From positions 1-44,283 of the IMG/VR virus record IMGVR_UViG_3300009421_000008: a DNA stretch of 44,283 nt; one strand, 5' to 3'. The notes below the pieces were generated by a model. It saw only the letters and a program-made list of their open reading frames with translations. It searched no databases and had not been told where the DNA came from. Each line of letters begins with the position of its first letter. Positions within the stretch are counted from its first letter, which is position 1. Both the position numbers and the translations under genes were made by a program. This document shows, piece after piece, positions 19,979-44,283 of the stretch. Source of the DNA: a virus.

Positions 19979-20713
19979 TTACTGAATACCGATCATAAGG
20001 GCAGCTGCACGCCTGTTGTGCAACTCCCAGTCAAATTCATCTTCTGGAACGGGCTTCGGCTCAGGCGCATTTTTATAAGCCTTGGTCATATTCCACTTGT
20101 TGTCTGCTTCTTTTCCGTCATCGACCAAATCCGCGAAATTAGCTTCTTTGGCTTCATCAGCCGTGAACCAAGTTTCATCTTGCAACCACTGGGTAAGCTG
20201 CTTGCGATCTTGGCCGGTTCTAGCGGCGTAGTCATCAATGATTGTTCCGTCGATCTTATCCAAAAGGTCGGCGGTGGCCCTCATCTCTTGCGCATTGCCG
20301 TAAGCAGCGCCCCATGACTGGTGGATCATGAGAAACGATCCTTTGGACATGGTCACAGAATTACCCGCGGTTGCAATCCAGCTAGCGGCCGATGCGGCGA
20401 TTCCGTCAACGTACGTGTTGAATTTGCCGTGATTGCGAAGGGCAGAAAGAATAGCGCGGGCCTCAAACACTGAGCCGCCAGGTGAATTCAACCTGACGTT
20501 TAGTGGGGATCCCTTTTGAACATTCTGAAGGGCCTCAATAACCATCGTTGCGCTGACACCCCAGAATTGGTCAATGATGTCGTAGATGTAGAGGTCGGTT
20601 GCGCCGCCTTCGTTAGTTGGCTCGACAACATTGAAAAGCTTTTCAACGCCTGAGTTATCAAGCGTCAAATTAGCCATGATGGCGTGGCCGTCAGGCCTCT
20701 TCTTCATTTTCAT
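19979..20713 (-). CDS. Prohead (head maturation) serine protease, ClpP-like
   Basis: Motifs LNSPGGSVFEA and GIAASAASW. Preferred start is ATG 20713 (GAGGA N8 ATG). The track ORF extends to 20809, inside the portal gene. Confidence 0.8.
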   Translation of the reverse strand: MKMKKRPDGHAIMANLTLDNSGVEKLFNVVEPTNEGGATDLYIYDIIDQFWGVSATMVIEALQNVQKGSPLNVRLNSPGGSVFEARAILSALRNHGKFNTYVDGIAASAASWIATAGNSVTMSKGSFLMIHQSWGAAYGNAQEMRATADLLDKIDGTIIDDYAARTGQDRKQLTQWLQDETWFTADEAKEANFADLVDDGKEADNKWNMTKAYKNAPEPKPVPEDEFDWELHNRRAAALMIGIQ

Positions 20714-22043
20714 CTTCGTTTTCCTCGGGGTCTTCACCCTTGTCAGATTTATCTTCGTCTTCGGGCTCAGAACTGCCCATGCCAGTAAACAACTCGTCAC
20801 CACCGTCAACCTTGGGCAGCCTCTCGAGCTTACGAATCTCGTTGGTGGTCATCCAGCCAGGGCCTTGCGAGCCGCCAATAGATTGCCTGTAAGCGGCCGT
20901 TCTGCTTACGAGATCAGATCTTGCAATCGCAGAAACGTTGAATTCGCAAAATCTGCCAATCTCAGAATCAGATTCGAAAAGCTTATAGCTCAACTCTTGT
21001 GTAATCTCGTCGATGATGGGCTGAACAGAGTAGATCAAAAATCCACGCCCCATCTCTTCAAGGCCCTTGCCAAAGGCCGTCACTTTGGTAGTAGCACCAA
21101 TCAAATGGGGCGGCACTCCGCATACGCGGGCGATTTCTTCAACTTGGAAATTTCGAGTCTCAAGCAATTGCGCGTCTGACGCCTTCATGCTGATTGAGCT
21201 AACGTCCATGCCGCCAGTAAGAATGAACGGCAACATACGAGCAGGCTGATTAATGAGATCCTCGTATTGTGACCTGAGATCGTCCTTTTGCGCGGAGCTC
21301 ATTTTATTGGGCGACGTGAAGACGTGCCTGCCAACGCCGCCAGAGCCAAACATGGAACCTTGTTGTTTCTCAGCTGTTCCAGCGACTGAGATGGCGTTTC
21401 GAGCCCCCCATGAAAGCAGGCTCATGCCATGCTCGCCGTCAAATCCGAAACCGGGAAAGTGCAGCATGTCATCGGAAGGCACTTTGATAACCCTGCCGTC
21501 AGATAACGTAACCCAGTAATCTAAATCACCTTGCTCTGTGTTAGCCTCAACTCTGACCTGTGCAGGGTTGAGCGGAATGATTTGAGATACCTCTAAAGCG
21601 CTGGATCTTCCACGGCCAATCTTCTTGCGGATAACCCAAGCGTAGCCATCGCCGCGCAGAAAAATGCAGAGCAGGATCCATTTCCAAAACGCCGCCGCGG
21701 TGAACCTAAAATTGGGCCGCATATTAAGCAAAGGCGCAAGTGGGTCGCCGATAATGCGTTCTTTATCGCCCTCTGCATTTTGCTCATAAATATGAATGGG
21801 CAAAGTTGATATAACACCGCAAAGAAGTGTGATGCACCTGTAAAACGCGGAAATACGCATCGCCGAATCAGGATTAACCGAGTAATCAGTCACTCCTGGC
21901 GGCATATTGAACAGTTCGCCCATTGCTACGTTATCTGAAGAGACAACGGTCGTTTGAATCATATTGCTAAGACTTGGAATAGCAATCTCTCTAGATTCTG
22001 ACGTGATGGCGGCTTCGGCCAAGAATGGGTCAAATGGAGTCAT
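20691..22043 (-). CDS. Portal protein (HK97 family-like)
   Basis: 450 aa, between TerL and the protease, with an acidic C-terminal tail (EDEDKSDKGEDPEENEDENEEEA). TAATG overlap with TerL. Confidence 0.85.
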   Translation of the reverse strand: MTPFDPFLAEAAITSESREIAIPSLSNMIQTTVVSSDNVAMGELFNMPPGVTDYSVNPDSAMRISAFYRCITLLCGVISTLPIHIYEQNAEGDKERIIGDPLAPLLNMRPNFRFTAAAFWKWILLCIFLRGDGYAWVIRKKIGRGRSSALEVSQIIPLNPAQVRVEANTEQGDLDYWVTLSDGRVIKVPSDDMLHFPGFGFDGEHGMSLLSWGARNAISVAGTAEKQQGSMFGSGGVGRHVFTSPNKMSSAQKDDLRSQYEDLINQPARMLPFILTGGMDVSSISMKASDAQLLETRNFQVEEIARVCGVPPHLIGATTKVTAFGKGLEEMGRGFLIYSVQPIIDEITQELSYKLFESDSEIGRFCEFNVSAIARSDLVSRTAAYRQSIGGSQGPGWMTTNEIRKLERLPKVDGGDELFTGMGSSEPEDEDKSDKGEDPEENEDENEEEA

Positions 22044-23632
22044 TAGATGGTCTCAAAACCTGATTCAGCCTCGAGCATCTCTTTGCTTAACATGCCTTCG
22101 GCCATAACCGCCGCGACAATACCGTCGATGCGCCCAGTTGATTTCACTTTGTCAAGTTTCCTGTTTCCAGACGGGTCTTGAACAATAACGGCGTTTGCGG
22201 CGCACCAGTTGAGCACCGGGTTATCGCCGTGGTTGACATTTCCTTGGACCATGTGGGTTTCAACCTGCTCAATAGCAGGCGACATGTCTTTGAACCCTTG
22301 GCCAAACGGTTCCATGGGGAAGTCAAGATCGTACCGTTCAATTTCTTTGTTCAAAAAGTCCATTCTCCATCGGTCAAACCCAATGGCTCTAAGATCCAAG
22401 TCTTCACAAATCTCATGCATATCGCGAACAACAACGCCGTAATCAATGACTTTCCCTGGAACTGCGCGGATGAACCCTTGGTCTACCCACAATTGATAAG
22501 GTGCCTTGTCTCTATCTTGCCGGTCTCTAATCGTGTCCAACGGAGTCCAAAAATATGTGTGCCAATGCTGTCTTTCATCTTCGTCCACACCTATTAAGTG
22601 GAACGCTGTTAAGTCAAGTGATTGCGACAGATCAAGGCCTCCGACCACAACACACTCGTCTAAGCTCCTTGGTTTACCGTTATTTTTGTTCCACACACTC
22701 CTTGCAATGAAGGGTGAAAACATCTGAACTCTCTGGTTCAGTGTGAGATTTCTGAAAGTGTTCTCTGCACTTGGCATTCTTTTGGCTTGCTTGGCCTGCT
22801 CTTCAACGTCCACAAGACTTCTGAATGACCCAATTGCCGGATTAGCTGCTTTCCAAGCTTCTGGATCGTCCACATCCGCATCCTGTTCTGCCGCGTATAA
22901 GTGGCAAACTATCTTCGGATCTTTGGATTCTAGTGCATCATCTATCCAAATTGACAATAAATCGGCGTCTGTGGGCGCCTGAGTGGAGATTGCCATGAGA
23001 ATTGGGGCCTCGTGGGCGCCCTGGCTGGTCGTAATTGCGTCGATAAACGCATCCTGGGGCCCCTGGACCTGCCCGACTTCGTCGAGAATAGCAAGTATAG
23101 GGCTAAGGCCGTGGGCCGTCGTACCGTCTGCTGCAAGCGCCCTGTACTCAACATTCTTGTTGACTCCGACCAATCGTTTACTCGACGGGACAATTTTCAC
23201 AAGGTTTCGGAGGATGGCCGACAGATTAATCATCTTGGCTGCAAGGTTGAACACAAGCGCTGCTTGATCTCGGCTCCTTGCACCAGAAACAACTTGGCTG
23301 TTCTGAATTGCCTCAGGGCCACAAACGTGAGCCAAGACAAGAGCGGCAATGAGCGCAGTCTTTCCGTTTTTTCTCGCAATCGACAAATATGCGCGTCTTG
23401 TGCCCGCTGGATTGTCGTAAACAGCAATAATGAAGTTCTTTTGGAACGGATCGAGCAGCATCTTTTGCCCGACTTTAGTTCCTTCTGGGATCAAACAGTA
23501 GTTCTCGATAAACGCGACAACCTTTTCACCGCGCGTCATCGTTGATAAATCACCCACCGCAGCGGCAATTTTGGTCTTTTTTGGCGCCGCTTTCTTGCGC
23601 GGAATTGCAGGTTTCTTACGCGGAGTTACCAT
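22043..23632 (-). CDS. terL: Terminase large subunit
   Basis: 529 aa. ATPase-like region LSIARKNGKTALIAALVL (Walker A-like) and ILAILDEVGQ (Walker B-like). A nuclease half follows. Its position is between TerS and the portal. Confidence 0.85.
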   Translation of the reverse strand: MVTPRKKPAIPRKKAAPKKTKIAAAVGDLSTMTRGEKVVAFIENYCLIPEGTKVGQKMLLDPFQKNFIIAVYDNPAGTRRAYLSIARKNGKTALIAALVLAHVCGPEAIQNSQVVSGARSRDQAALVFNLAAKMINLSAILRNLVKIVPSSKRLVGVNKNVEYRALAADGTTAHGLSPILAILDEVGQVQGPQDAFIDAITTSQGAHEAPILMAISTQAPTDADLLSIWIDDALESKDPKIVCHLYAAEQDADVDDPEAWKAANPAIGSFRSLVDVEEQAKQAKRMPSAENTFRNLTLNQRVQMFSPFIARSVWNKNNGKPRSLDECVVVGGLDLSQSLDLTAFHLIGVDEDERQHWHTYFWTPLDTIRDRQDRDKAPYQLWVDQGFIRAVPGKVIDYGVVVRDMHEICEDLDLRAIGFDRWRMDFLNKEIERYDLDFPMEPFGQGFKDMSPAIEQVETHMVQGNVNHGDNPVLNWCAANAVIVQDPSGNRKLDKVKSTGRIDGIVAAVMAEGMLSKEMLEAESGFETI

Positions 23633-23634
23633 AT

Positions 23635-24189
23635 TTAGGCCAAAAGTCCAATGTTTGGGTCTTTAGGTGGCTCATTCTCGTCCACTGGTGGAGTTTCGCC
23701 TTTGATTTGTGATTGCATGTTTCTAGCATCTCGCTCGTACGCGCGTTTTCTAGTTTTTTCAAACGCCCTGCCGCTTTGTGTTGGCTGAATTAGCAAAGTG
23801 CGCATCAATCTGCGGGCGCGCTCGGACAATTCTGAAATTACAGCAATTCTGGGATTTGGTTCGCGGCCGTCGATCTTAATTGTGATGGACCCCTCAAGAT
23901 CTAGTATGCGCTCTTCTTCTTGTATTCTATAAACGCACTTTACGAGATCTTCGGCCAAGAAAAAATCTTGTTCGTTAAGCCATTCGTCTTTGGCTCGAGA
24001 ATTCATGACCATTTCCCAGGCGGGCAAATGATGTGGCCTCAAATCTGTAAAAGCTGGCGGCGAGATCGGGCCCGCTGCAGCATCTTCAGCCGCTTTCAAA
24101 AGCCCTTCGACTGTGTTAACTATCGGCTTTTTCCTTGGTCCGACGGCGCCTTTTCTATTCGCCACAATCACCTCACAATCAAAACCCAA
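23635..24189 (-). CDS. terS: Terminase small subunit (P27-family-like)
   Basis: 184 aa directly upstream of TerL. The N-terminal basic segment NRKGAVGPRKKP is typical of P27-type TerS proteins that pair with an HNH endonuclease. The start codon is uncertain (TTG at 24189). Confidence 0.65.
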   Translation of the reverse strand: MGFDCEVIVANRKGAVGPRKKPIVNTVEGLLKAAEDAAAGPISPPAFTDLRPHHLPAWEMVMNSRAKDEWLNEQDFFLAEDLVKCVYRIQEEERILDLEGSITIKIDGREPNPRIAVISELSERARRLMRTLLIQPTQSGRAFEKTRKRAYERDARNMQSQIKGETPPVDENEPPKDPNIGLLA

Positions 24190-24273
24190 TTCAAAATGAC
24201 TGGGGGGACGTAGTCCAGGGGGCCCGCCCTAAGCTTTTAGGTACCGGCCCCTAAACTACATGGTTACTTGATA

Positions 24274-24287
24274 AATAACTAGTTATT
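24274..24287. promoter_or_regulatory. Perfect 14-bp palindrome AATAACTAGTTATT (operator-like) between HNH and TerS
   Basis: The string is its own reverse complement. Near-identical copies sit inside three plus-strand promoters at 28796, 30215 and 36429. Confidence 0.6.
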
Positions 24288-24445
24288 AACTACGAACTTA
24301 CTAATTGAATCGCAAAGTTTGTTAAGCTCTAAGACTCCGTCAACCTCAATCGTGTCGTCGTCCTCGTTGTATAAATCCAAACAACCTAAATCTTGCTGTT
24401 GGTTTCTCAACTCTTCAACGATAACATCTCGCAGAGTTTTCTTTG

Positions 24446-24790
24446 TTACTTGTTCCATGGGTGCTCCGGGTCGTTGGGTACGCCATCAGCGTTGCAACCT
24501 GCTCTGCGTATCCATCCTCTCTCTTTAATACTCTTGTTAGCGTGATGTCGCTTACACAACGATTGAAAGTTAGACTCGTCGTCCTTGCCACCCTTGTGTA
24601 TTGGTACCACGTGGTCCACCTCTTCAGCAGCAACTAAATAACCTTGCTTCTTACAGTGTACGCACAGTGAGTGCTCACGTAGCCACCGTGCTCTGCGCTT
24701 GACTGCTCTGCTACCTGTGAGGCGTGCGTGTACCATGCAGCGATTATACTCTTGCGCTCGTAGTGGGGGCGCTCTATGGGCCGTAATCAT
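24446..24790 (-). CDS. HNH endonuclease (packaging-associated)
   Basis: CVHCKKQG...VDHVVPIHKGGKDDESNFQSLCKRHHANK. Located just upstream of TerS. ATG 24790 is preferred over TTG 24802, which lies inside the inverted repeat. Confidence 0.85.
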   Translation of the reverse strand: MITAHRAPPLRAQEYNRCMVHARLTGSRAVKRRARWLREHSLCVHCKKQGYLVAAEEVDHVVPIHKGGKDDESNFQSLCKRHHANKSIKERGWIRRAGCNADGVPNDPEHPWNK

Positions 24791-24797
24791 GCAGGCC

Positions 24798-24820
24798 CAC
24801 AAAGTTGCCTGTTGCCTTTA
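24798..24820. repeat. Left arm of a perfect 23-bp inverted repeat (cacaaagttgcctgttgccttta)
   Basis: It is the exact reverse complement of 24913..24935. The arms flank a 92-bp AT-rich spacer. Confidence 0.9.
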
Positions 24821-24912
24821 TAAAACGCAGATCTATCTACTACTACCCTAATTTATTACTTACTTTTCTTTTTATGTTAAATTCCTCCCCCTATTCTAGA
24901 ATATAAAGAAAG

Positions 24913-24935
24913 TAAAGGCAACAGGCAACTTTGTG
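24913..24935. repeat. Right arm of the perfect 23-bp inverted repeat (taaaggcaacaggcaactttgtg)
   Basis: It is the exact reverse complement of 24798..24820. Confidence 0.9.
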
Positions 24936-25023
24936 AGGGCCCCCACAGAGCAGGGCGCAGGGCGCATAGTTATTGCACAGTACGCCGCATAAGTGCTTGA
25001 TTACCAAGGACATATCGCCCCTG

Positions 25024-25053
25024 TTGTACGTAATTAAAATAACAGCATACGAT
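25024..25053 (+). promoter_or_regulatory. Candidate early sigma70-type promoter (TTGTAC N18 TACGAT)
   Basis: It has the same -35 hexamer and 18-nt spacing as the three internal plus-strand promoters. The spacer contains the half-site AAATAAC. It lies upstream of the first plus-strand ORF. Confidence 0.45.
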
Positions 25054-25068
25054 TACTCAACAAATTTT

Positions 25069-25114
25069 CTCAGTTGCCTTGTTGCCTTTTGGTCGCGCGA
25101 CAAAGGCAACTGAG
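25069..25114. promoter_or_regulatory. Imperfect palindrome built from GTTGCC/GGCAAC units around a GTCGCGCGAC core
   Basis: ctcagttgcctt (25069-25080) pairs with aaggcaactgag (25103-25114). The central 10-bp palindrome is at 25092-25101. Confidence 0.6.
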
Positions 25115-25153
25115 CTCTAAAATCGCTGAAGAAACAGACCAAAAAGGACTCAA

Positions 25154-25603
25154 ATGGGTACAAAAACGGGGCCAGAATTGGCCCAAAAAAGCTTCATTTC
25201 CATCATTTTGTTGCTCTCTTCGCGCAACCAGAGGGCCTTGGGGCAACAGATAAGGCAACTAGGCAACTACTTAAAGATGGCAGAAAGTGAGCTTGAATCA
25301 CTTGTTTTGCCGCCTATAGAAGAGAAATCTCCACCAGGAAGGCCAGCTAAGAAGTACCTGGCCGGTTGGGGCTACACCCATGACGTAAAGGCCGCAAATG
25401 AGACTATGACCCTTTCAGAAATTTCTAAAATAGTCAATCACAGTCCCCCCGCCATAGCAGCTAAGATGTCAAGGCACAAAATGGGCATCGCTCAATACAT
25501 GATCCAAGAAAACAAAACTACTCCAGGATCCTACGGGCCTCCAGATGAGAGTGAAGCTATACCATTCACAGTGTTCAGAGATAATCCTAATGAGGCGGAG
25601 TGA
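25154..25603 (+). CDS. First early protein, possible HTH DNA-binding protein
   Basis: AAGGA N5 ATG at 25154. An alternative start is ATG 25277. The segment MTLSEISKIVNHSPPAIAAKMSRH looks helix-turn-helix-like. Confidence 0.45.
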   Translation: MGTKTGPELAQKSFISIILLLSSRNQRALGQQIRQLGNYLKMAESELESLVLPPIEEKSPPGRPAKKYLAGWGYTHDVKAANETMTLSEISKIVNHSPPAIAAKMSRHKMGIAQYMIQENKTTPGSYGPPDESEAIPFTVFRDNPNEAE

Positions 25604-25605
25604 TC

Positions 25606-27675
25606 ATGGCGCAGGGGCAGTACAGCCAGGCAGCAATAGAAAAGCTTGCGTCATCGGGGCTCACAGTAGCAGACGCTAAAAAGCTTCATATAGACTATCT
25701 CAGTAGGGAGAGAACGGCCAAAGAAAACAAATCGTACAAGCCACTAGAAAGCCTCCGCTTCGCTTACCTAGAGCCCAGTGGAAAGAAGATGGGTAATGGA
25801 GTCGCGTACACGCGCATCAGATACCTAGAGCAAGAAGCAGGATTTGCTCAGCAGACCAAGGGCAAGAAGTTATCCTACATGCAAGCAGCGGGCAGTGAGA
25901 CGTATGCCTACTATCCACCTAACCAAGATTGGAGCATTCTCAATGACCCAACCATACCACTCATCATTACGGAAGGCGAGCTCAAAGCGGCTAAGGCTTG
26001 TAAGGAAGGATTCCCAACGATTGCGGTTGGTGGCGTCTGGGCGTGGCGTAGTGTCAACCAAGGGCACACATGGCTACCATCACTCGATTTTCCGGTTTGG
26101 TATGGCAGGCACGTTTATATTTGTTTCGATGCCGACTACCATGGTAACGCCAACGTCTCCCGGGCTCTTATCGCCTTGGCAGAGGAATTGGTTGACAGAG
26201 GCGCTCACCCGCATTTAGCCATTACGCCCGAGGTGGCGGAGATAGAGAAGACCGGCATCGACGATTTCCTGACCTACGGGGGCAAGGATGCTAATGAGCA
26301 ATTTGCGCTCATGCTCCACGCGTCTCCTATGATAGGCTTGTGCAAACATCTAATTGCCATGAACAAGAAATACATCTACGTCCAAGACCCGGGCGTGATA
26401 GTCAACCTGAAGAGTCTGCATAAAATCACCCCATCTGCTTTCAAAGAGCATACAGAGTCCAAAGAGAAGATCTTAGAGCTCACGCTCACGCCCGAAGGAG
26501 AGACTCAAGCTAAACGAGCATCGGCAGCAGCTGCTTGGATACGCTGGCCTATGCGCAACGAGTGTGGCAGATTAACCTACCGGCCAGGGGCCGAGAAAAT
26601 AGTGGAGAAAGAAAATGAGCTCGAGCTCAATATATGGAAAGGTTGGGGTTGTGATTCTAGACGTGGATCAACTAAGCCGTTTGAACAACTTATTGAGCAT
26701 TTATTCACAGGAGCTAATAGAGCTACAAAAGAATGGTTCCTTGATTGGTGTGCTTATCCCATCCAGAATCCTGGATCAAAAATGTCTAGCGCAGCTGTTA
26801 TCCACGGAGTGCAACAGGGAACTGGAAAGTCAATGGTCGGTTATTCGCTCGGACGGATCTACGGGGATAATTTCAGCGAGATTGACCACGCAGACCTTCA
26901 GTCTCCTTTTAATGAATGGGCGGAAGGAAAACAGTTTGTCATGGGAGACGACGTTGCGGGAAGTAATAAGAGGGCTGACGCAGACAGATTGAAGAAGATG
27001 ATCACTCAGCAAGAGATTCGGATCAATGGCAAATACGTCCCTAGCTACGCCATACCAGACTGCGTCAACTACTTCTTTACGGCCAACCACTCAGATAGCT
27101 TCTATCTTGAGGACTCAGACCGCCGCTTCTTTATCCATGAGGTAACAGTACCCCCACTAGATGAGCAGTTCTACACAAACTATATGAACTGGTTGGAAAA
27201 TGGCGGGGCGGAAGCTCTCTTCTATTATTTCCAGCACAGAGACATCTCGAAATTTAACCCCAAGGCCCCTGCGCTGCGTACAGCTGCTAAGGACAGCATG
27301 ATCAGCTCGGTGCAATCCGACCATGGCGCATGGGTCAGGGAGCTTAGGGACGACCCAGATAGTATGCTGATGATAGGGTCTGCCAGAATTCAGCGTGACC
27401 TATTCACGGCGCAGGAGCTCTACGCTCTCTATAACCCAGACGATAGGCCGATGCGGGTCACTGCGGGCACTATAGGTAGAGAGCTTTCGAATGCAGGCTT
27501 TGCCAAGGCCAATGGGGGTTCTAAGCTATTCTGCAACATCGACGGTCGCAGGCGGACGCTTGTGTTTTATATAGTGCGCAATAAAGAGAAATGGTTAAGC
27601 GCGTCAACCAAGGAAATGACCGCGCACATTAACGCTGCTGAGAAGAAGTTCAAAGCGGCAACAGCGAGAGGGTGA
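25606..27675 (+). CDS. Primase-helicase: Toprim-like N-terminal domain + SF3 (D5/P4-type) helicase
   Basis: Toprim-like IPLIITEGELKAAK...VYICFDADY. Walker A GVQQGTGKS. Walker B-like FVMGDD. GGAG N5 ATG at 25606 (GTG 25600 is an alternative). Confidence 0.75.
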   Translation: MAQGQYSQAAIEKLASSGLTVADAKKLHIDYLSRERTAKENKSYKPLESLRFAYLEPSGKKMGNGVAYTRIRYLEQEAGFAQQTKGKKLSYMQAAGSETYAYYPPNQDWSILNDPTIPLIITEGELKAAKACKEGFPTIAVGGVWAWRSVNQGHTWLPSLDFPVWYGRHVYICFDADYHGNANVSRALIALAEELVDRGAHPHLAITPEVAEIEKTGIDDFLTYGGKDANEQFALMLHASPMIGLCKHLIAMNKKYIYVQDPGVIVNLKSLHKITPSAFKEHTESKEKILELTLTPEGETQAKRASAAAAWIRWPMRNECGRLTYRPGAEKIVEKENELELNIWKGWGCDSRRGSTKPFEQLIEHLFTGANRATKEWFLDWCAYPIQNPGSKMSSAAVIHGVQQGTGKSMVGYSLGRIYGDNFSEIDHADLQSPFNEWAEGKQFVMGDDVAGSNKRADADRLKKMITQQEIRINGKYVPSYAIPDCVNYFFTANHSDSFYLEDSDRRFFIHEVTVPPLDEQFYTNYMNWLENGGAEALFYYFQHRDISKFNPKAPALRTAAKDSMISSVQSDHGAWVRELRDDPDSMLMIGSARIQRDLFTAQELYALYNPDDRPMRVTAGTIGRELSNAGFAKANGGSKLFCNIDGRRRTLVFYIVRNKEKWLSASTKEMTAHINAAEKKFKAATARG

Positions 27676-28371: not shown

Positions 28372-28800
28372 ATGAACGAAAGAGGTACAGGACGCACAAC
28401 TAGAATGCTGCAAGACGCGGTGGCTAGGTGTTTTGAAACTCAACGACCAGTTGCGGTGGTCATCCACAATAAACAATTTTTTGGGTACTGCGCGAGTCTT
28501 GTGAATGACGTCGTTCTTAGAGGGTCGGAAAACACCATTATAGATCCTAGGCGCCAACGGATTAGTTTTGGAGACAACAGAATTCTTTTCTTTAGCGTCG
28601 AGGAAATTGTGAATTCTCATAGACTGAGAGGGCTTGAATTGGGTGGGCTGTTCATCGACCATTCAGTATCAACTATAGTGCCCAACCATTCTGCGCTGAT
28701 TCGTCTTGAGCAAGAAATAGAAGTTGCCTTTGCTGGAATTCGGGGGCAACAAAATTGTAAGCGGCGGAAAACCCGAATAAACCGTTGTACAAGTAAATAA
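28372..28800 (+). CDS. Hypothetical protein with a degenerate P-loop-like motif
   Basis: AAGGAG N7 ATG. Starts MNERGTGRTTRML and has a hydrophobic-Asp stretch GGLFIDH. Confidence 0.5.
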   Translation: MNERGTGRTTRMLQDAVARCFETQRPVAVVIHNKQFFGYCASLVNDVVLRGSENTIIDPRRQRISFGDNRILFFSVEEIVNSHRLRGLELGGLFIDHSVSTIVPNHSALIRLEQEIEVAFAGIRGQQNCKRRKTRINRCTSK

Positions 28801-28814
28801 CTAGTTAGTATAAT
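28785..28814 (+). promoter_or_regulatory. Sigma70-type promoter with embedded palindrome (TTGTAC N18 TATAAT)
   Basis: ttgtac-aagtaaataactagttag-tataat. The spacer carries AATAACTAGTTAG (13/14 of the palindrome). Confidence 0.6.
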
Positions 28815-30202: not shown

Positions 30203-30232
30203 GTGTACATCTCAAATAACTAGTTATATTAT
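30203..30232 (+). promoter_or_regulatory. Sigma70-type promoter with embedded palindrome (GTGTAC N18 TATTAT)
   Basis: gtgtac-atctcaaataactagtta-tattat. It is nearly identical over about 45 bp to the element at 36417. Confidence 0.6.
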
Positions 30233-36416: not shown

Positions 36417-36446
36417 GTGTACATCTCAAATAAATAGTTATATTAT
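36417..36446 (+). promoter_or_regulatory. Sigma70-type promoter with embedded palindrome (GTGTAC N18 TATTAT)
   Basis: gtgtac-atctcaaataaatagtta-tattat. It shares its downstream leader (attcttcaatc vs attcttaatc) with the 30203 element. Confidence 0.6.
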
Positions 36447-37924: not shown

Positions 37925-38692
37925 ATGCCTAAAACACGGGAGATTTTAAGAGATGATAGGGATTACGATACAACACAGCTTCGAGAAGCCGGACACGGAC
38001 GTACACTTCACCGCGACTATTCAGCTCACTTCTGGCGATGGTCTTTCGCCCGACGATTTATCACACCTAAGGACAATGTGCTCGAAATTGGTTGCGGAGA
38101 AGACCGCCCGTTATCTAAAATCCTTACAGGTGGAGCTGCCGCAAGCGTCGGCCGGTATACTGGCGTGGACATCAATAAACTTAAGCCATCTCAGTCTCAG
38201 CGTCTCACCTTCCACGGGGAGTTTAATTTCGTCACAGAACACAAGAAGCTCTTGACTGGCGAGAACGCAGATGGGTTTGACGTAGTCGTGCATCTTGAAG
38301 TGATTGAGCACATGAAGGTGGAGCACGGCCGCAAGCTGCTTCGAAATGCATTCGCATGTTTGAAGCCGGGCGGAACGATGCTCATGTCTACCCCGTGCTA
38401 CGACGGTAAGCGGCATGCTGCTAACCATATTCATGAGTACACTGTTCCTGAGCTTCAGAAGGCTACTGAGAAGGCTGGCTTCGAAGTTGTGAAACGCTAC
38501 GGTGCATTCATGGACATCAAGCACATCGGCAAGAAAGACCGCAGCAACAATGAGTGTACCGATGCTGCCATTACCGAGGTGTACCAAGCGCTCAGGGAGT
38601 ATTACGACAACGATGCACTGAGCTGCTTCTTTGCTCCGCTGTATCCTGACAACGCCCGCAACAACTTGTGGGTTTGCCGCAAACCAAATTAA
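37925..38692 (+). CDS. Class I SAM-dependent methyltransferase (substrate unknown)
   Basis: Motif I VLEIGCGEDRP, then VVVHLEVIEHM and LKPGGTMLMSTP. I found no DPPY/NPPY or PC/ENV DNA-methyltransferase motifs. Confidence 0.7.
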   Translation: MPKTREILRDDRDYDTTQLREAGHGRTLHRDYSAHFWRWSFARRFITPKDNVLEIGCGEDRPLSKILTGGAAASVGRYTGVDINKLKPSQSQRLTFHGEFNFVTEHKKLLTGENADGFDVVVHLEVIEHMKVEHGRKLLRNAFACLKPGGTMLMSTPCYDGKRHAANHIHEYTVPELQKATEKAGFEVVKRYGAFMDIKHIGKKDRSNNECTDAAITEVYQALREYYDNDALSCFFAPLYPDNARNNLWVCRKPN

Positions 38693-38702
38693 GGAGAAAT
38701 CA

Positions 38703-39134
38703 ATGAGAAAGAATTTTGATGACGTGCGTGAATTGCACGAGAGTTTTGCTATTGCCGTCAACGACACACCGCATCTGTTGTGTCGTCGGTTAGCCCAAGA
38801 GCGGATAGATTTCATTGGTGAAGAACTCGATGAATTGTACGATGCCATGAGTGCTGACGACATCAACGAAATAGCCGATGCGCTGATCGACATTGTGGTC
38901 GTTGCTATGGGCACTGCGGCTATGATGGGCCTCCCGTGGCAAGAACTGTGGGACGACGTGCATCGCGCCAACATGGCTAAGGAGCGAGGAGTAGGGAAGC
39001 GAGGCAATGCAGTCGACCTCATCAAGCCTGAGGGCTGGGTGCCGCCTCACACACGAGATATTCTGCAAGAAGCGGGGTATAACTTTGACAATCCACCGGA
39101 GCCTCATGATGACAGACGCACAAAGATTTCCTGA
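38703..39134 (+). CDS. MazG-like all-alpha nucleoside triphosphate pyrophosphohydrolase
   Basis: AAGGAG N7 ATG. IDFIGEELDELYDA...EIADALIDIVVVAMG gives the EExxE...D metal-binding helices. Confidence 0.65.
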   Translation: MRKNFDDVRELHESFAIAVNDTPHLLCRRLAQERIDFIGEELDELYDAMSADDINEIADALIDIVVVAMGTAAMMGLPWQELWDDVHRANMAKERGVGKRGNAVDLIKPEGWVPPHTRDILQEAGYNFDNPPEPHDDRRTKIS

Positions 39135-39642
39135 GAAGCAAATCGTAATCTTTGAAGGTTGCGATTGCACTGGCAAGACCACCGCTGCCAAGGCCTACGC
39201 GGCAGCGACTGGGGCCGATTACATCCACAACGGGCCGTATTTGGGCAAGACCGGGTCTGAGCTGTTTAACGTTTATTTTAATCAGATGGAATTCTCTAGA
39301 CTCAACGACATTCCAGTTGTCATTGATCGTTGTTGGGTCAGTGAGAATATTTACGGACGGGTGCTGCGCGGAGGATCTAGGTTATCTCCTGACCAGACAA
39401 CTGAGTTACTCGAAATGGCAGAGCATTTAGACGTTGAATTCATCGTCTGCGACCCTGGGTTAGACCAAGTTAAAAACACTTGGTTATCTCGCCGACAAAC
39501 TGAGCTGGTAGTGGATACTGAGAACCTTGAGAAGGTTTGGAATTATTACTCTGCGCTTGGTAATGCCAGGGCAAAGATTTACGACTGGCTCGAGTTCAAG
39601 GACTGCTCGATGGATGACCTTATCAACTTCATAGAGGATTAA
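39106..39642 (+). CDS. Thymidylate-kinase-like dNMP kinase
   Basis: P-loop IVIFEGCDCTGKTT and the downstream VVIDR motif, as in the TMK family. The start is at ATG 39106 or 39109. Confidence 0.6.
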   Translation: MMTDAQRFPEKQIVIFEGCDCTGKTTAAKAYAAATGADYIHNGPYLGKTGSELFNVYFNQMEFSRLNDIPVVIDRCWVSENIYGRVLRGGSRLSPDQTTELLEMAEHLDVEFIVCDPGLDQVKNTWLSRRQTELVVDTENLEKVWNYYSALGNARAKIYDWLEFKDCSMDDLINFIED

Positions 39643-39645
39643 AAC

Positions 39646-40449
39646 ATGTTTGACACAAATAGAAGCTACATCGAAACTGCGGACGCCGTCATTGCGTACG
39701 GAGGCGGGGTTAACCCACGGGGGCAAGGCACTGTGGAAGTTATTGGTCATCAGACAGCGGTAAATATGAGGAAGCCTATTATCACGCTGCCAAGTCGTGC
39801 GCTTAACTACCAATTCATGTTTGCAGAGGCCGCTTGGATTCTGAGAGGTGATGACAGTCTAGCGCCTTTGGTTAAACACATCAACAGGATGAAAGACTTC
39901 AGTGACGACGGTGAAACGCTGTCTGGCGCTTACGGCCCACGTTACGTCGATCAACGCGACTATGTTTTGGATGCCTTACTGAGTGATCCTACAACTCGGC
40001 AGGCTGGTTTGACATTGTGGAAACCCAGTCCTACGCCAAGTAAAGATATACCATGCACCCTTGCACTGTGGTTCTTAATCCGAGAAGGCCACTTGTGGGT
40101 ACATGCTTTCATGCGGAGTAGCGACGTTTGGCTGGGGTTGCCGTACGACATCTTCAGCTTCAGTATGATAGGCCATGACATTTGTGCACGGTATAACTTA
40201 AACAACGGCGGCGAAACCATCAAGCCGGGCGGTTTAATTATCTCTGCCGCGTCGACCCACGTGTATGACAGAGATGCCGACCTCGTTAAGAACATGGTCA
40301 AAGAGTCTACGGAGTATAGGAATAGGCCACTACAGTTGGAAACACCCAGCGCGTTGCACACAGACCCGATGTTCCTGATGCACTGGCTTGAGGACACATC
40401 CAATGATCCTGAAGCCGCCAGAAACTGCTGGAAAGTTGATGGGATCTAG
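39646..40449 (+). CDS. ThyA-family pyrimidine-C5 transferase with Asp at the Asn177 position; predicted dCMP hydroxymethylase or dCMP methyltransferase rather than thymidylate synthase
   Basis: It aligns to E. coli ThyA: PRGQGT / DRTGTGT; AEAAWIL / HELLWFL; DIPCTLALWF / LAPCHAFFQF (Cys137, 40054-40056); MRSSDVWLGLPYDIFSF / YQRSCDVFLGLPFNIASY (Asp168, 40147-40149). The Cys-to-Asp spacing is 31 residues, the same as C146-N177. Confidence 0.65.
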   Translation: MFDTNRSYIETADAVIAYGGGVNPRGQGTVEVIGHQTAVNMRKPIITLPSRALNYQFMFAEAAWILRGDDSLAPLVKHINRMKDFSDDGETLSGAYGPRYVDQRDYVLDALLSDPTTRQAGLTLWKPSPTPSKDIPCTLALWFLIREGHLWVHAFMRSSDVWLGLPYDIFSFSMIGHDICARYNLNNGGETIKPGGLIISAASTHVYDRDADLVKNMVKESTEYRNRPLQLETPSALHTDPMFLMHWLEDTSNDPEAARNCWKVDGI

Positions 40450-40936
40450 AATCTCAACCTACGCATGGTTATCTGAGATGGCACAGATAACTGCCAAGAG
40501 ATCTACGTGTGCACGCCGTCAGGTCGGTTGTGTTCTTGTGGACTGGCATAATAAGGTTCTATCTACGGGGTACAACGGCACGCCGGTGGGTTTCAAGAAC
40601 TGCTCAGAGGCTCGTGCACGAGACGGAGGTGGTCTGGTGTGCTCTGCCAGAAACTCTCCTTCTGGAGAAGATCTTGGTGGGTGCCACGCCGTGCATGCGG
40701 AACAGAACGCGCTGCTCCAGTGCCCGGATGTTAACACAATCAAGACCTGCTTTGTCACGACCAGCCCGTGTGTCCACTGTGTGAAGATGCTACTCAACAC
40801 ATCTTGTGATCAAATAGTTTTCTTAGAACCTTACGCTCATGAAGCAACTTCTCGAGAGCTGTGGTTGAGCTCTCCTATAGAGAGACACTGGAAGTTCTGG
40901 GCACTAGAAGGATACGAGCTGTCTGGCAGAAACTAA
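40439..40936 (+). CDS. dCMP deaminase (cytidine/deoxycytidylate deaminase zinc-binding family)
   Basis: AKRSTCARRQVGCVLVD, HAEQNAL and PCVHCVKML. Start at ATG 40439, overlapping the upstream gene's end. Confidence 0.8.
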   Translation: MGSRISTYAWLSEMAQITAKRSTCARRQVGCVLVDWHNKVLSTGYNGTPVGFKNCSEARARDGGGLVCSARNSPSGEDLGGCHAVHAEQNALLQCPDVNTIKTCFVTTSPCVHCVKMLLNTSCDQIVFLEPYAHEATSRELWLSSPIERHWKFWALEGYELSGRN

Positions 40937-44160: not shown

Positions 44161-44283
44161 GACTCTTCCCAAGCTGACTGAAGGTCAGCGTGAAAATCGA
44201 AGCCAACTAGCAGATTGTGGGTCTGCTGATTCTCAGTTGATGCTCTATAAGAATCTGCCGCAGTCTGACCAACAAGCCTGGCA
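44161..44283. repeat. Terminal direct repeat, copy 2 (identical to 1..123)
   Basis: Same 123-nt string as 1..123. It lies inside an open reading frame, so it is not an intergenic terminal repeat. Confidence 0.95.

Follow-up and report, generated by a model that had tools for sequence, protein, structure and literature searches.

In the genome of an uncultured virus (IMG/VR record IMGVR_UViG_3300009421_000008; the whole stretch of 44,283 nt is referred to as the window), a dense field of the hexamer GGCAAC and its complement GTTGCC, termed iterons in the following, is situated at positions 24798 to 25267 in the divergent control region between a minus-strand packaging arm and a plus-strand replication arm. 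With moderate confidence, we interpret this field as the origin used by a self-loading superfamily 3 (SF3) primase-helicase of the phage, combined with an auxiliary, autoregulatory iteron group at the early promoter that would be assisted by integration host factor (IHF). This interpretation is favoured because the layout is conserved, the element is linked to the replication module, its core is the most easily melting part of the genome, an SF3 helicase gene is found in the neighbourhood, and the anatomy resembles that of the origins of Staphylococcus aureus pathogenicity islands (SaPIs). A replication origin had already been proposed in an initial annotation of this DNA; layout, module linkage, melting, helicase class, and SaPI-like anatomy agree with that proposal, whereas protein binding and initiation themselves are inferred. 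Altogether, the support is substantial but circumstantial, and the proposal stands as partly supported. Most likely, the field is an origin of a known kind that has so far gone undescribed in this phage lineage.

In the proposed mechanism, a winged-helix-like domain predicted at the C-terminus of the primase-helicase would recognise (A)AGGCAAC(T) units, and the opposed iteron doublets at 24798-24820 and 24913-24935 would position two helicase assemblies that flank a 92-bp core. This core would then melt. A bend of the IHF type at 24990-25002 might draw in a palindromic iteron group at 25069-25114 and perhaps also the iterons within the small gene orf149. Because this auxiliary group lies just downstream of a candidate promoter at 25025-25053, its occupancy by the initiator would at the same time throttle transcription of orf149 and the primase gene.

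Architecture of the repeat field

GTTGCC occurs at 24804, 24811, 25073, and 25081, and GGCAAC at 24917, 24924, 25105, 25242, 25254, and 25262, which are exactly the ten positions given in the initial annotation. These 10 copies in 24804-25267 compare to 33 copies in the remaining approximately 43.8 kb. For the whole window, 43 copies were counted versus 25.9 ± 5 in dinucleotide shuffles, which corresponds to an expectation of approximately 0.27-0.35 copies per 470 bp instead of the previously estimated value of about 0.2. In 20,000 random placements of 43 sites, the maximum per 470 bp never exceeded 7, compared to the 10 observed. Furthermore, of the seven exact AAGGCAAC octamers in the window, all but one fall in the field, and repeats of the iteron sequence are essentially confined to this one locus.

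The left arm (24798-24820, minus strand) comprises the iterons at 24804 and 24811, of which the GGCAAC arrows point away from the core, and the right arm (24913-24935, plus strand) those at 24917 and 24924. As had been noticed before, both arms form a perfect inverted repeat (23 nt, 100% complementary) with a spacer of 92 nt; the arm centres are approximately 115 bp, i.e., approximately 11 helical turns, apart. The period of the doublets is 7 bp in the two arms and 8 bp at 25073/25081 and 25254/25262. The spacer (24821-24912), which we propose as DNA-unwinding element, is pyrimidine-rich in the top strand and consists of approximately 73% A+T, compared to 51% in the genome. At -102.9 kcal/mol, its duplex is less stable than any other 92-bp window of the genome (mean -129.3, sd 5.6).

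The palindromic iteron group (25069-25114, 46 bp) contains GTTGCC at 25073 and 25081 and GGCAAC at 25105 around GTCGCGCGAC and is proposed as an auxiliary or autoregulatory site. The palindrome with the third doublet around GTCGCGCGAC that had been reported for this place is indeed present, with perfect 12-nt arms (25069-25080 and 25103-25114) and an inner palindrome (25089-25104). Folded as RNA, the group reaches -26.1 kcal/mol (z = -4.4). In a search of the window against Rfam, no match was obtained at the gathering threshold, and solely sub-threshold models of plant miRNA hairpins fall on the inverted repeat; a known RNA family was therefore rejected as an explanation for the field.

Three further iterons (25242, 25254, and 25262; plus strand, 25242-25267) lie in coding sequence, since the start of orf149 (25154-25603, plus strand) at 25154 is backed by an AAGGA ribosome-binding site and by the N-terminal alignment with a family of small ORFs. 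The field had been placed in the divergent control region, but these three copies are not intergenic. Similarly, it had been described as lying next to the primase-helicase gene (25606-27675, plus strand). The neighbourhood is the same, but orf149 is situated in between, and the field is located upstream of the primase-helicase gene at a distance of 340-800 bp from its start. Outside the field, the sole exact AAGGCAAC octamer is part of an inverted pair, GTTGCCTTTG...GGGCAACAAAA, at 28723-28750 (chance p approximately 0.02-0.05), which is located in the 3' end of a 142-aa ORF and approximately 35 bp upstream of a promoter-like sequence at 28786. It is uncertain whether this pair is a secondary site or due to chance.

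An IHF consensus site (AATCAAGCACTTA, corresponding to WATCAANNNNTTR) at 24990-25002 on the minus strand is one of only two consensus matches in the window; as the consensus is AT-rich, this match is supportive only. In 18 out of 59 relatives, the consensus occurs within ±250 bp of the core. Its density near the core amounts to 0.74 per kb compared to 0.047 per kb elsewhere, an approximately 16-fold difference that is inflated by the AT-rich composition. In many relatives, a sequence matching the IHF consensus, CCTAAGTTATTGA/TCAATAACTTAGG, flanks the iteron field on one side or on both, e.g., at approximately 2598-2610 and just upstream of the small-ORF start codon in the related locus L014, at 1120-1132 in L015, and at 2834-2846 in L013. 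In some loci it overlaps the ribosome-binding site of the small ORF (TTAGGAG) and may have a second role.

A DnaA box (TTATCCACA, with up to one mismatch) was not found in 21634-26701, which fits an origin that is independent of the host initiator. A DnaA-dependent iteron origin of the plasmid or lambda type was rejected due to this absence, even though the IHF site would agree with it.

Known origins, related phages, and candidate readers

SaPI origins contain 6-12 penta- or hexanucleotide iterons and an AT-rich centre with at least two iterons on each side in opposite directions (PMC9371898). Their reader is the C-terminal winged-helix domain of the self-loading SF3 protein Rep, which is thought to load one hexamer per side (PMC9371898). 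The field likewise consists of short hexanucleotide iterons, ten in number, and of an AT-rich centre with at least two opposed iterons per side (24804/24811 on the minus strand and 24917/24924 on the plus strand). In addition, the neighbouring gene encodes a D5-like SF3 helicase fused to or paired with a primase, for which a C-terminal winged helix is predicted by modelling. In contrast to the SaPI ori, which is located immediately downstream of rep, the field precedes the helicase gene, from which it is separated by a small ORF, and occupies a divergent promoter region. A Toprim/DUF3854 primase domain, the IHF site, the palindromic iteron group at the promoter, and the iterons within a gene are further differences. 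Sequence homology between the primase-helicase and SaPI Rep was not detectable.

The alpha protein of P4 unites primase, SF3 helicase, and a C-terminal winged-helix origin-binding domain in one polypeptide. It reads octamer iterons (TGTTCACC) in both orientations, and a second iteron cluster, crr, is located kilobases apart from ori. The extra iteron groups at 25069-25114, 25242-25267, and 28723-28750 recall this distant second cluster, but sequence and arrangement of the iterons differ from those of P4, and P4 alpha was not among the matches in structure searches of the primase-helicase. In iteron plasmids (pSC101, R6K, F, and P1) and in the lambda ori, direct iterons and an IHF site are found beside an AT-rich unwinding region. 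Inverted iteron copies at the initiator promoter act as autoregulatory operator, and the lambda iterons are located inside the O gene. The respective initiators are dedicated Rep or O proteins, which recruit the host DnaB and need DnaA boxes. The field shares parts of this logic. Unlike these systems, it lacks a DnaA box, its iterons comprise 6-8 bp instead of 17-22 bp, and the phage encodes an SF3 helicase of its own. In case of the GAGGC pentamers of SV40 large T and the sites of papillomavirus E1, an SF3 initiator forms two hexamers at opposed repeats by an AT tract. The field shares the opposed short repeats beside an AT tract and the SF3 helicase with these origins, which differ in belonging to eukaryotic viruses and in the fold of the origin-binding domain, with no homology beyond the SF3 core.

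Nucleotide-level relatives among deposited phages were found neither by megablast nor by blastn. For the primase, more than 1,000 homologues were obtained at E <= 1e-50. It is approximately 48% identical to the proteins of Stenotrophomonas phage AXL3 and Pseudoxanthomonas phage PW916, 61% identical to that of the metagenomic contig L010, its closest relative, and 40-53% identical to those of the other listed relatives. At the equivalent place of the relatives, i.e., between the terminase arm on one side and the small ORF and primase gene on the other, an AT-rich core of 45-115 bp is flanked on either side by one to four short units, whose polarity is opposite on the two sides. Two or more units on both sides were observed in at least 16 metagenomic loci, e.g., L015, L077, L086, L090, L035, and L037. 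Dozens of uncultured relatives keep this layout of iterons and AT-rich core, as do the isolates AXL3 and PW916. From left to right, the core of the family passes from a CT-rich part through a TATA-like centre to an AG-rich part, and an extra palindromic pair of units is present in the loci of many relatives.

The sequence of the unit varies between clades. Most relatives possess (G)CTACAG(A), CTACAC is found in L077, L090, and L029, and the GTTGC unit is limited to the window and L010 (CTCAGTTGCtAGTTGC ... GCAACTGAG). The possibility that GCAACA is a one-base variant of GCTACA was rejected, since its polarity relative to the core is opposite. A constant layout with a repeat that varies by clade is expected of a co-evolving pair of initiator and origin.

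With the exception of the same phage, no tblastn match to the small terminase (TerS), the large terminase (TerL), the portal protein, or orf59, a 59-aa ORF, was obtained in approximately 80 related loci, and the HNH endonuclease gave one distant match (L030). Since the relatives keep the element but use different packaging genes, it belongs to the replication module of small ORF and primase. The comparison of 20691-24802 with L011-L090 suggests that the packaging module was swapped as a whole, in mosaic fashion, at the origin-like region. The repeat region goes undiscussed in the paper on AXL3, and a literature search yielded no paper that ties DUF3854 phage primases to an origin.

The primase-helicase (689 aa), the proposed initiator, is composed of a Toprim domain (DUF3854), a D5-like SF3 domain (DUF5906), and a C-terminal domain (27268-27672, plus strand) that is predicted to be winged-helix-like and that we propose as the reader of the iterons. 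Pfam assigns DUF5906 and VapE-like domains, and a sequence match to the NrS-1 helicase was found. An AlphaFold2 (AF2) model of the helicase and C-terminal region (pLDDT 89.8) matches the C-terminal region of NrS-1 (E 5e-19, TM 0.65), and also poxvirus D5/E5 and the PrimPol of African swine fever virus (ASFV). Furthermore, the complex of SaPI PriRep1 with dsDNA (7PDS) is matched with an E-value of approximately 1e-9 over 358-370 aligned columns, nearly the full length of helicase and C-terminal domain. Judged by this model, the protein belongs to the D5-like SF3 helicases and carries a C-terminal domain that resembles a winged helix. Modelled alone, the last 135 residues (pLDDT 84.7) show a helix-strand-helix-helix-hairpin topology; the top Foldseek matches of this isolated domain are winged-helix DNA binders (among them 7PDS, RTP, Cdt1, and ORC), none of them significant (best E 0.28).

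Phages of the CTACAG group are 75% identical to each other in the putative recognition helix and wing, which read TTANGLGRELARAG...DGSQGR. The helix of the GTTGC type reads TAGTIGRELSN in the window and TPGTIGRELSN in L010, as compared to TTANGLGRELAR, and in both cases the wing is 3 residues longer and arginine-rich (RRR or RR motif). A third variant of helix and wing occurs in L077 and L090, which carry CTACAC. This covariation of C-terminal domain and iteron, seen in the alignments, is suggestive only.

The initial annotation had considered the orf149 product, due to its resemblance to helix-turn-helix (HTH) proteins, as a possible reader of the repeats. This proposal is weakened. orf149, which has a weak HTH signature, belongs to a family of small ORFs with 25 members linked by BLASTP, which are always located between the repeat field and the primase gene and some of which show weak HTH_17 or MerR matches. 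Homology searches with orf149 returned the protein itself and two distant profile matches only; nothing significant was found in PHROGs and Pfam, and a profile search of the PDB was uninformative. In a set of ten phages with CTACAG repeats, the identity of the small-ORF HTH segment is only 25%, and due to this poor conservation among phages with one repeat sequence orf149 is disfavoured as the reader. The primase-helicase is the better candidate; in CTACAG phages its helix-wing segment is 75% identical compared to the 25% of the HTH segment.

Several observations weigh against an origin read by the primase-helicase. The element is always found in a divergent intergenic region that also needs promoters, so that AT-richness and protein sites are to be expected there anyway. 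The field is located upstream of the helicase gene and the SaPI ori downstream, and one side of the core holds six of the ten iterons. Regarding the reader, the Foldseek matches of the isolated C-terminal domain remain below significance, even the best having an E-value of 0.28, and the helix-wing segment is only moderately better conserved than the remainder of the primase (rank 29 of 97 windows). The covariation with the iterons rests on approximately one evolutionary event, is confounded by phylogeny, and has an exception in L029 with a TTANG helix but CTACAC repeats. A GC-skew minimum is present at 25-26 kb; because it coincides with the switch in gene orientation, it is not discriminating.

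A more far-reaching scenario, which we put forward tentatively and regard as rather doubtful, is a family-wide origin in the early-promoter region of a large, almost wholly uncultured siphovirus clade. There, the C-terminal winged helix would read the iterons, its specificity would have been naturally re-programmed from CTACAG/CTACAC to GTTGCC via changes in the recognition helix and a wing that gained 3 residues and is rich in arginine, and the same protein would autoregulate the operon via the palindromic group. If this were true, the clade would offer orthogonal pairs of initiator and origin and a readable recognition code of winged helix and iteron. If the origin interpretation favoured above is correct, natural specificity variants would be available for studying origin recognition by self-loading SF3 helicases, and origin and likely initiator would be pinned down for a widespread, barely studied group of environmental phages, which includes the therapeutic candidate Stenotrophomonas phage AXL3. 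A new principle would not be involved, as SaPIs and P4 are already established examples of unwinding elements that are flanked by iterons and read by a winged helix linked to a helicase.

Transcription signals and alternative explanations

Two overlapping signals of the sigma-70 type, TTGCCT-N17-TATATT and TTGCCT-N17-TAGAAT, are directed leftward at 24893-24928 (minus strand), with -35 hexamers that are provided by the right-arm iterons. By consensus match only, they are a possible promoter for the HNH/terminase arm; they are the sole sigma-70-like matches in the region of the field, and the relatives have no equivalent. A candidate rightward early promoter, TGTACG-N17-TACGAT (25025-25053, plus strand), is a diverged copy of the TGTACA-N17-TATWAT type of this phage and is situated between the IHF site and the palindromic iteron group, outside the core. 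The palindromic group starts approximately 10 bp past the expected transcription start of this promoter, and thus, going by position, is proposed to occupy the place of an autoregulatory operator.

The promoter type itself, TGTACA-N4-AAATAACTAGTTA-TATWAT, is represented at 28786-28814, 30204-30232, and 36418-36446 in AT-rich gaps between genes of the plus-strand arm. For the 12-bp palindrome ATAACTAGTTAT, four copies were counted versus 0.05 expected, of which three are located in the spacers of these promoters and one upstream of terS (24275-24286). Probably, the TGTACA-type motifs are the early or middle promoters of the phage with ATAACTAGTTAT as shared operator. ATAACTAGTTAT is a separate control motif in which GGCAAC is not involved.

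A purely transcriptional role of the field, which we consider the main and a serious rival of the origin although less probable, would mean that a regulator, orf149 or another protein, switches divergent promoters by means of an operator array. A leftward promoter would serve the HNH, terminase, and structural genes and a rightward one orf149 and the primase gene; the core would be promoter DNA, and the arms would repress by looping or as a roadblock. The position in a divergent control region, the use of right-arm repeats as -35 hexamers by the sole sigma-70-like matches there, and the palindromic group directly downstream of a copy of the phage promoter type speak for such an array. So are the HTH-like small ORF, which is always the first gene beside the field, the second inverted pair approximately 35 bp upstream of the promoter at 28786, and the distance of the arm centres (approximately 115 bp), which is close to 11 helical turns. 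The HTH of the small ORF, however, with approximately 25% identity among CTACAG phages, makes a poor reader, and the recognisable promoters of the phage carry ATAACTAGTTAT (four sites) and not GGCAAC, i.e., the general promoter operator is a different sequence. Tandem direct repeats with a period of 7-8 bp, as in the field, that oppose each other across a melting-prone core are typical of helicase-loading origins and unusual for HTH operators. By inspection, the arm repeats of the relatives do not form -35-like hexamers with a correctly spaced -10, and the rightward promoter candidate lies outside the AT core and does not need it. The initial annotation had named a multi-operator switch as the alternative to an origin. 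This is probably true in part, considering the promoter copy at 25025-25053 by the palindromic group and the TTGCCT -35 hexamers in the right arm, and transcription control is probably interwoven with the repeat field, but the purely transcriptional version ranks below the origin.

Very improbable is a packaging recognition site of the cos, pac, or cosB-like kind with the repeats as sites for the small terminase. The field is located immediately upstream of the genes of the HNH endonuclease (24446-24736/24802), TerS of the HK97 type (23635-24189), and TerL (22043-23632), all on the minus strand, with orf59, likewise a minus-strand gene left of the field, between HNH and TerS. In the cosB of lambda, an IHF site is found next to repeated protein sites, of which the IHF site beside the iterons is reminiscent. 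Two independent contigs end nearby, as L009 starts at 24941 and the end of L010 is found 50 bp to the left of the arm of that contig. On the other hand, relatives with other terminases, which lack homologues of TerS, TerL, and portal protein of the window, keep the same layout. Due to this non-homologous packaging module, a cos or TerS-binding site is disfavoured. Moreover, the expected place of cos in HK97-like HNH phages is the interval from HNH to terS, which corresponds here to the gap at 24190-24278 with a GC-rich block and a palindrome of its own.

The contig ends are uninformative for packaging, since the assemblies close into a circle. The terminal 123 bases of the window are identical (1-123 = 44161-44283), which gives a true genome of 44,160 bp, and two further public assemblies of 44,301 and 44,237 bp are compatible with the same 44,160 bp plus k-mer overlaps of 141 and 77, respectively. 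L009 is an independent SPAdes contig of the same phage, and its start at 24941 is situated 6 bp right of the right arm; the end of L010 lies in a tandem repeat of approximately 2.5 copies of GCACACTCGCCT, 50 bp left of its left arm. Both ends may be a coincidence or may reflect trouble with assembly or coverage. The gap between orf59 and the small terminase gene (24190-24290) contains the GC-rich block GGGGGGACGTAGTCCAGGGGGCCCGCCC followed by the palindrome AATAACTAGTTATT. Among the 92-bp windows of the genome, this gap ranks fourth in duplex instability, and we regard it as a candidate cos region of the HK97-like HNH/TerS/TerL module.

Least credible of all is that the field has no function of its own and represents a chance cluster, an insertion resembling a miniature inverted-repeat transposable element (MITE), or an invertible promoter segment, since the clustering is far beyond random (0 of 20,000 placements above 7) and the layout is found at the same locus in dozens of phages. 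A perfect 23-bp terminal inverted repeat around 92 bp does resemble a miniature transposon or invertible switch, and at first sight the core appears inverted relative to L010 and PW916. However, the arm sequence occurs elsewhere only as chance coding matches: searches of IMG/VR and GTDB genomes with the arm 19-mer and the 18-mer of site C returned chance matches only (two viral k-mer matches encode the peptide KATGNF, and 20 genome matches compare to approximately 17 expected), and a mobile element was rejected on these grounds. The apparent inversion is explained by the palindromic nature of the core itself (CT-rich / TATA / AG-rich). As, in addition, three assemblies of the same phage share the orientation where they overlap, an invertible promoter switch was rejected as well. 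A recombinase gene was absent among the ORFs scanned against Pfam or PHROGs, a scan that did not include many ORFs, among them most of the structural arm.

Gene context and further elements

The G+C content of the genome is 48.9%. Downstream of the primase-helicase gene, the plus strand encodes a DUF1643 protein, DNA polymerase A, a PD-(D/E)XK nuclease, an SNF2 helicase, thymidylate synthase, and dCMP deaminase. An RNA polymerase-like ORF was not found in the window. In many relatives, a GC-rich inverted repeat with 12-13-nt arms and a 64-70-nt spacer is conserved between the small ORF and the primase gene, e.g., at 3271-3358 in L018, 3270-3359 in L019, 3218-3313 in L085, and approximately 750-850 in L001; it is absent from the window, in which both genes overlap. 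This repeat may act as a second site on the DNA or as a structured RNA. The replication arm ends (37925-40936) with a cluster of genes for a SAM-dependent methyltransferase, a thymidylate-synthase homologue, and a dCMP deaminase, which suggests remodelling of the nucleotide pool or possibly modified bases, as in AXL3.

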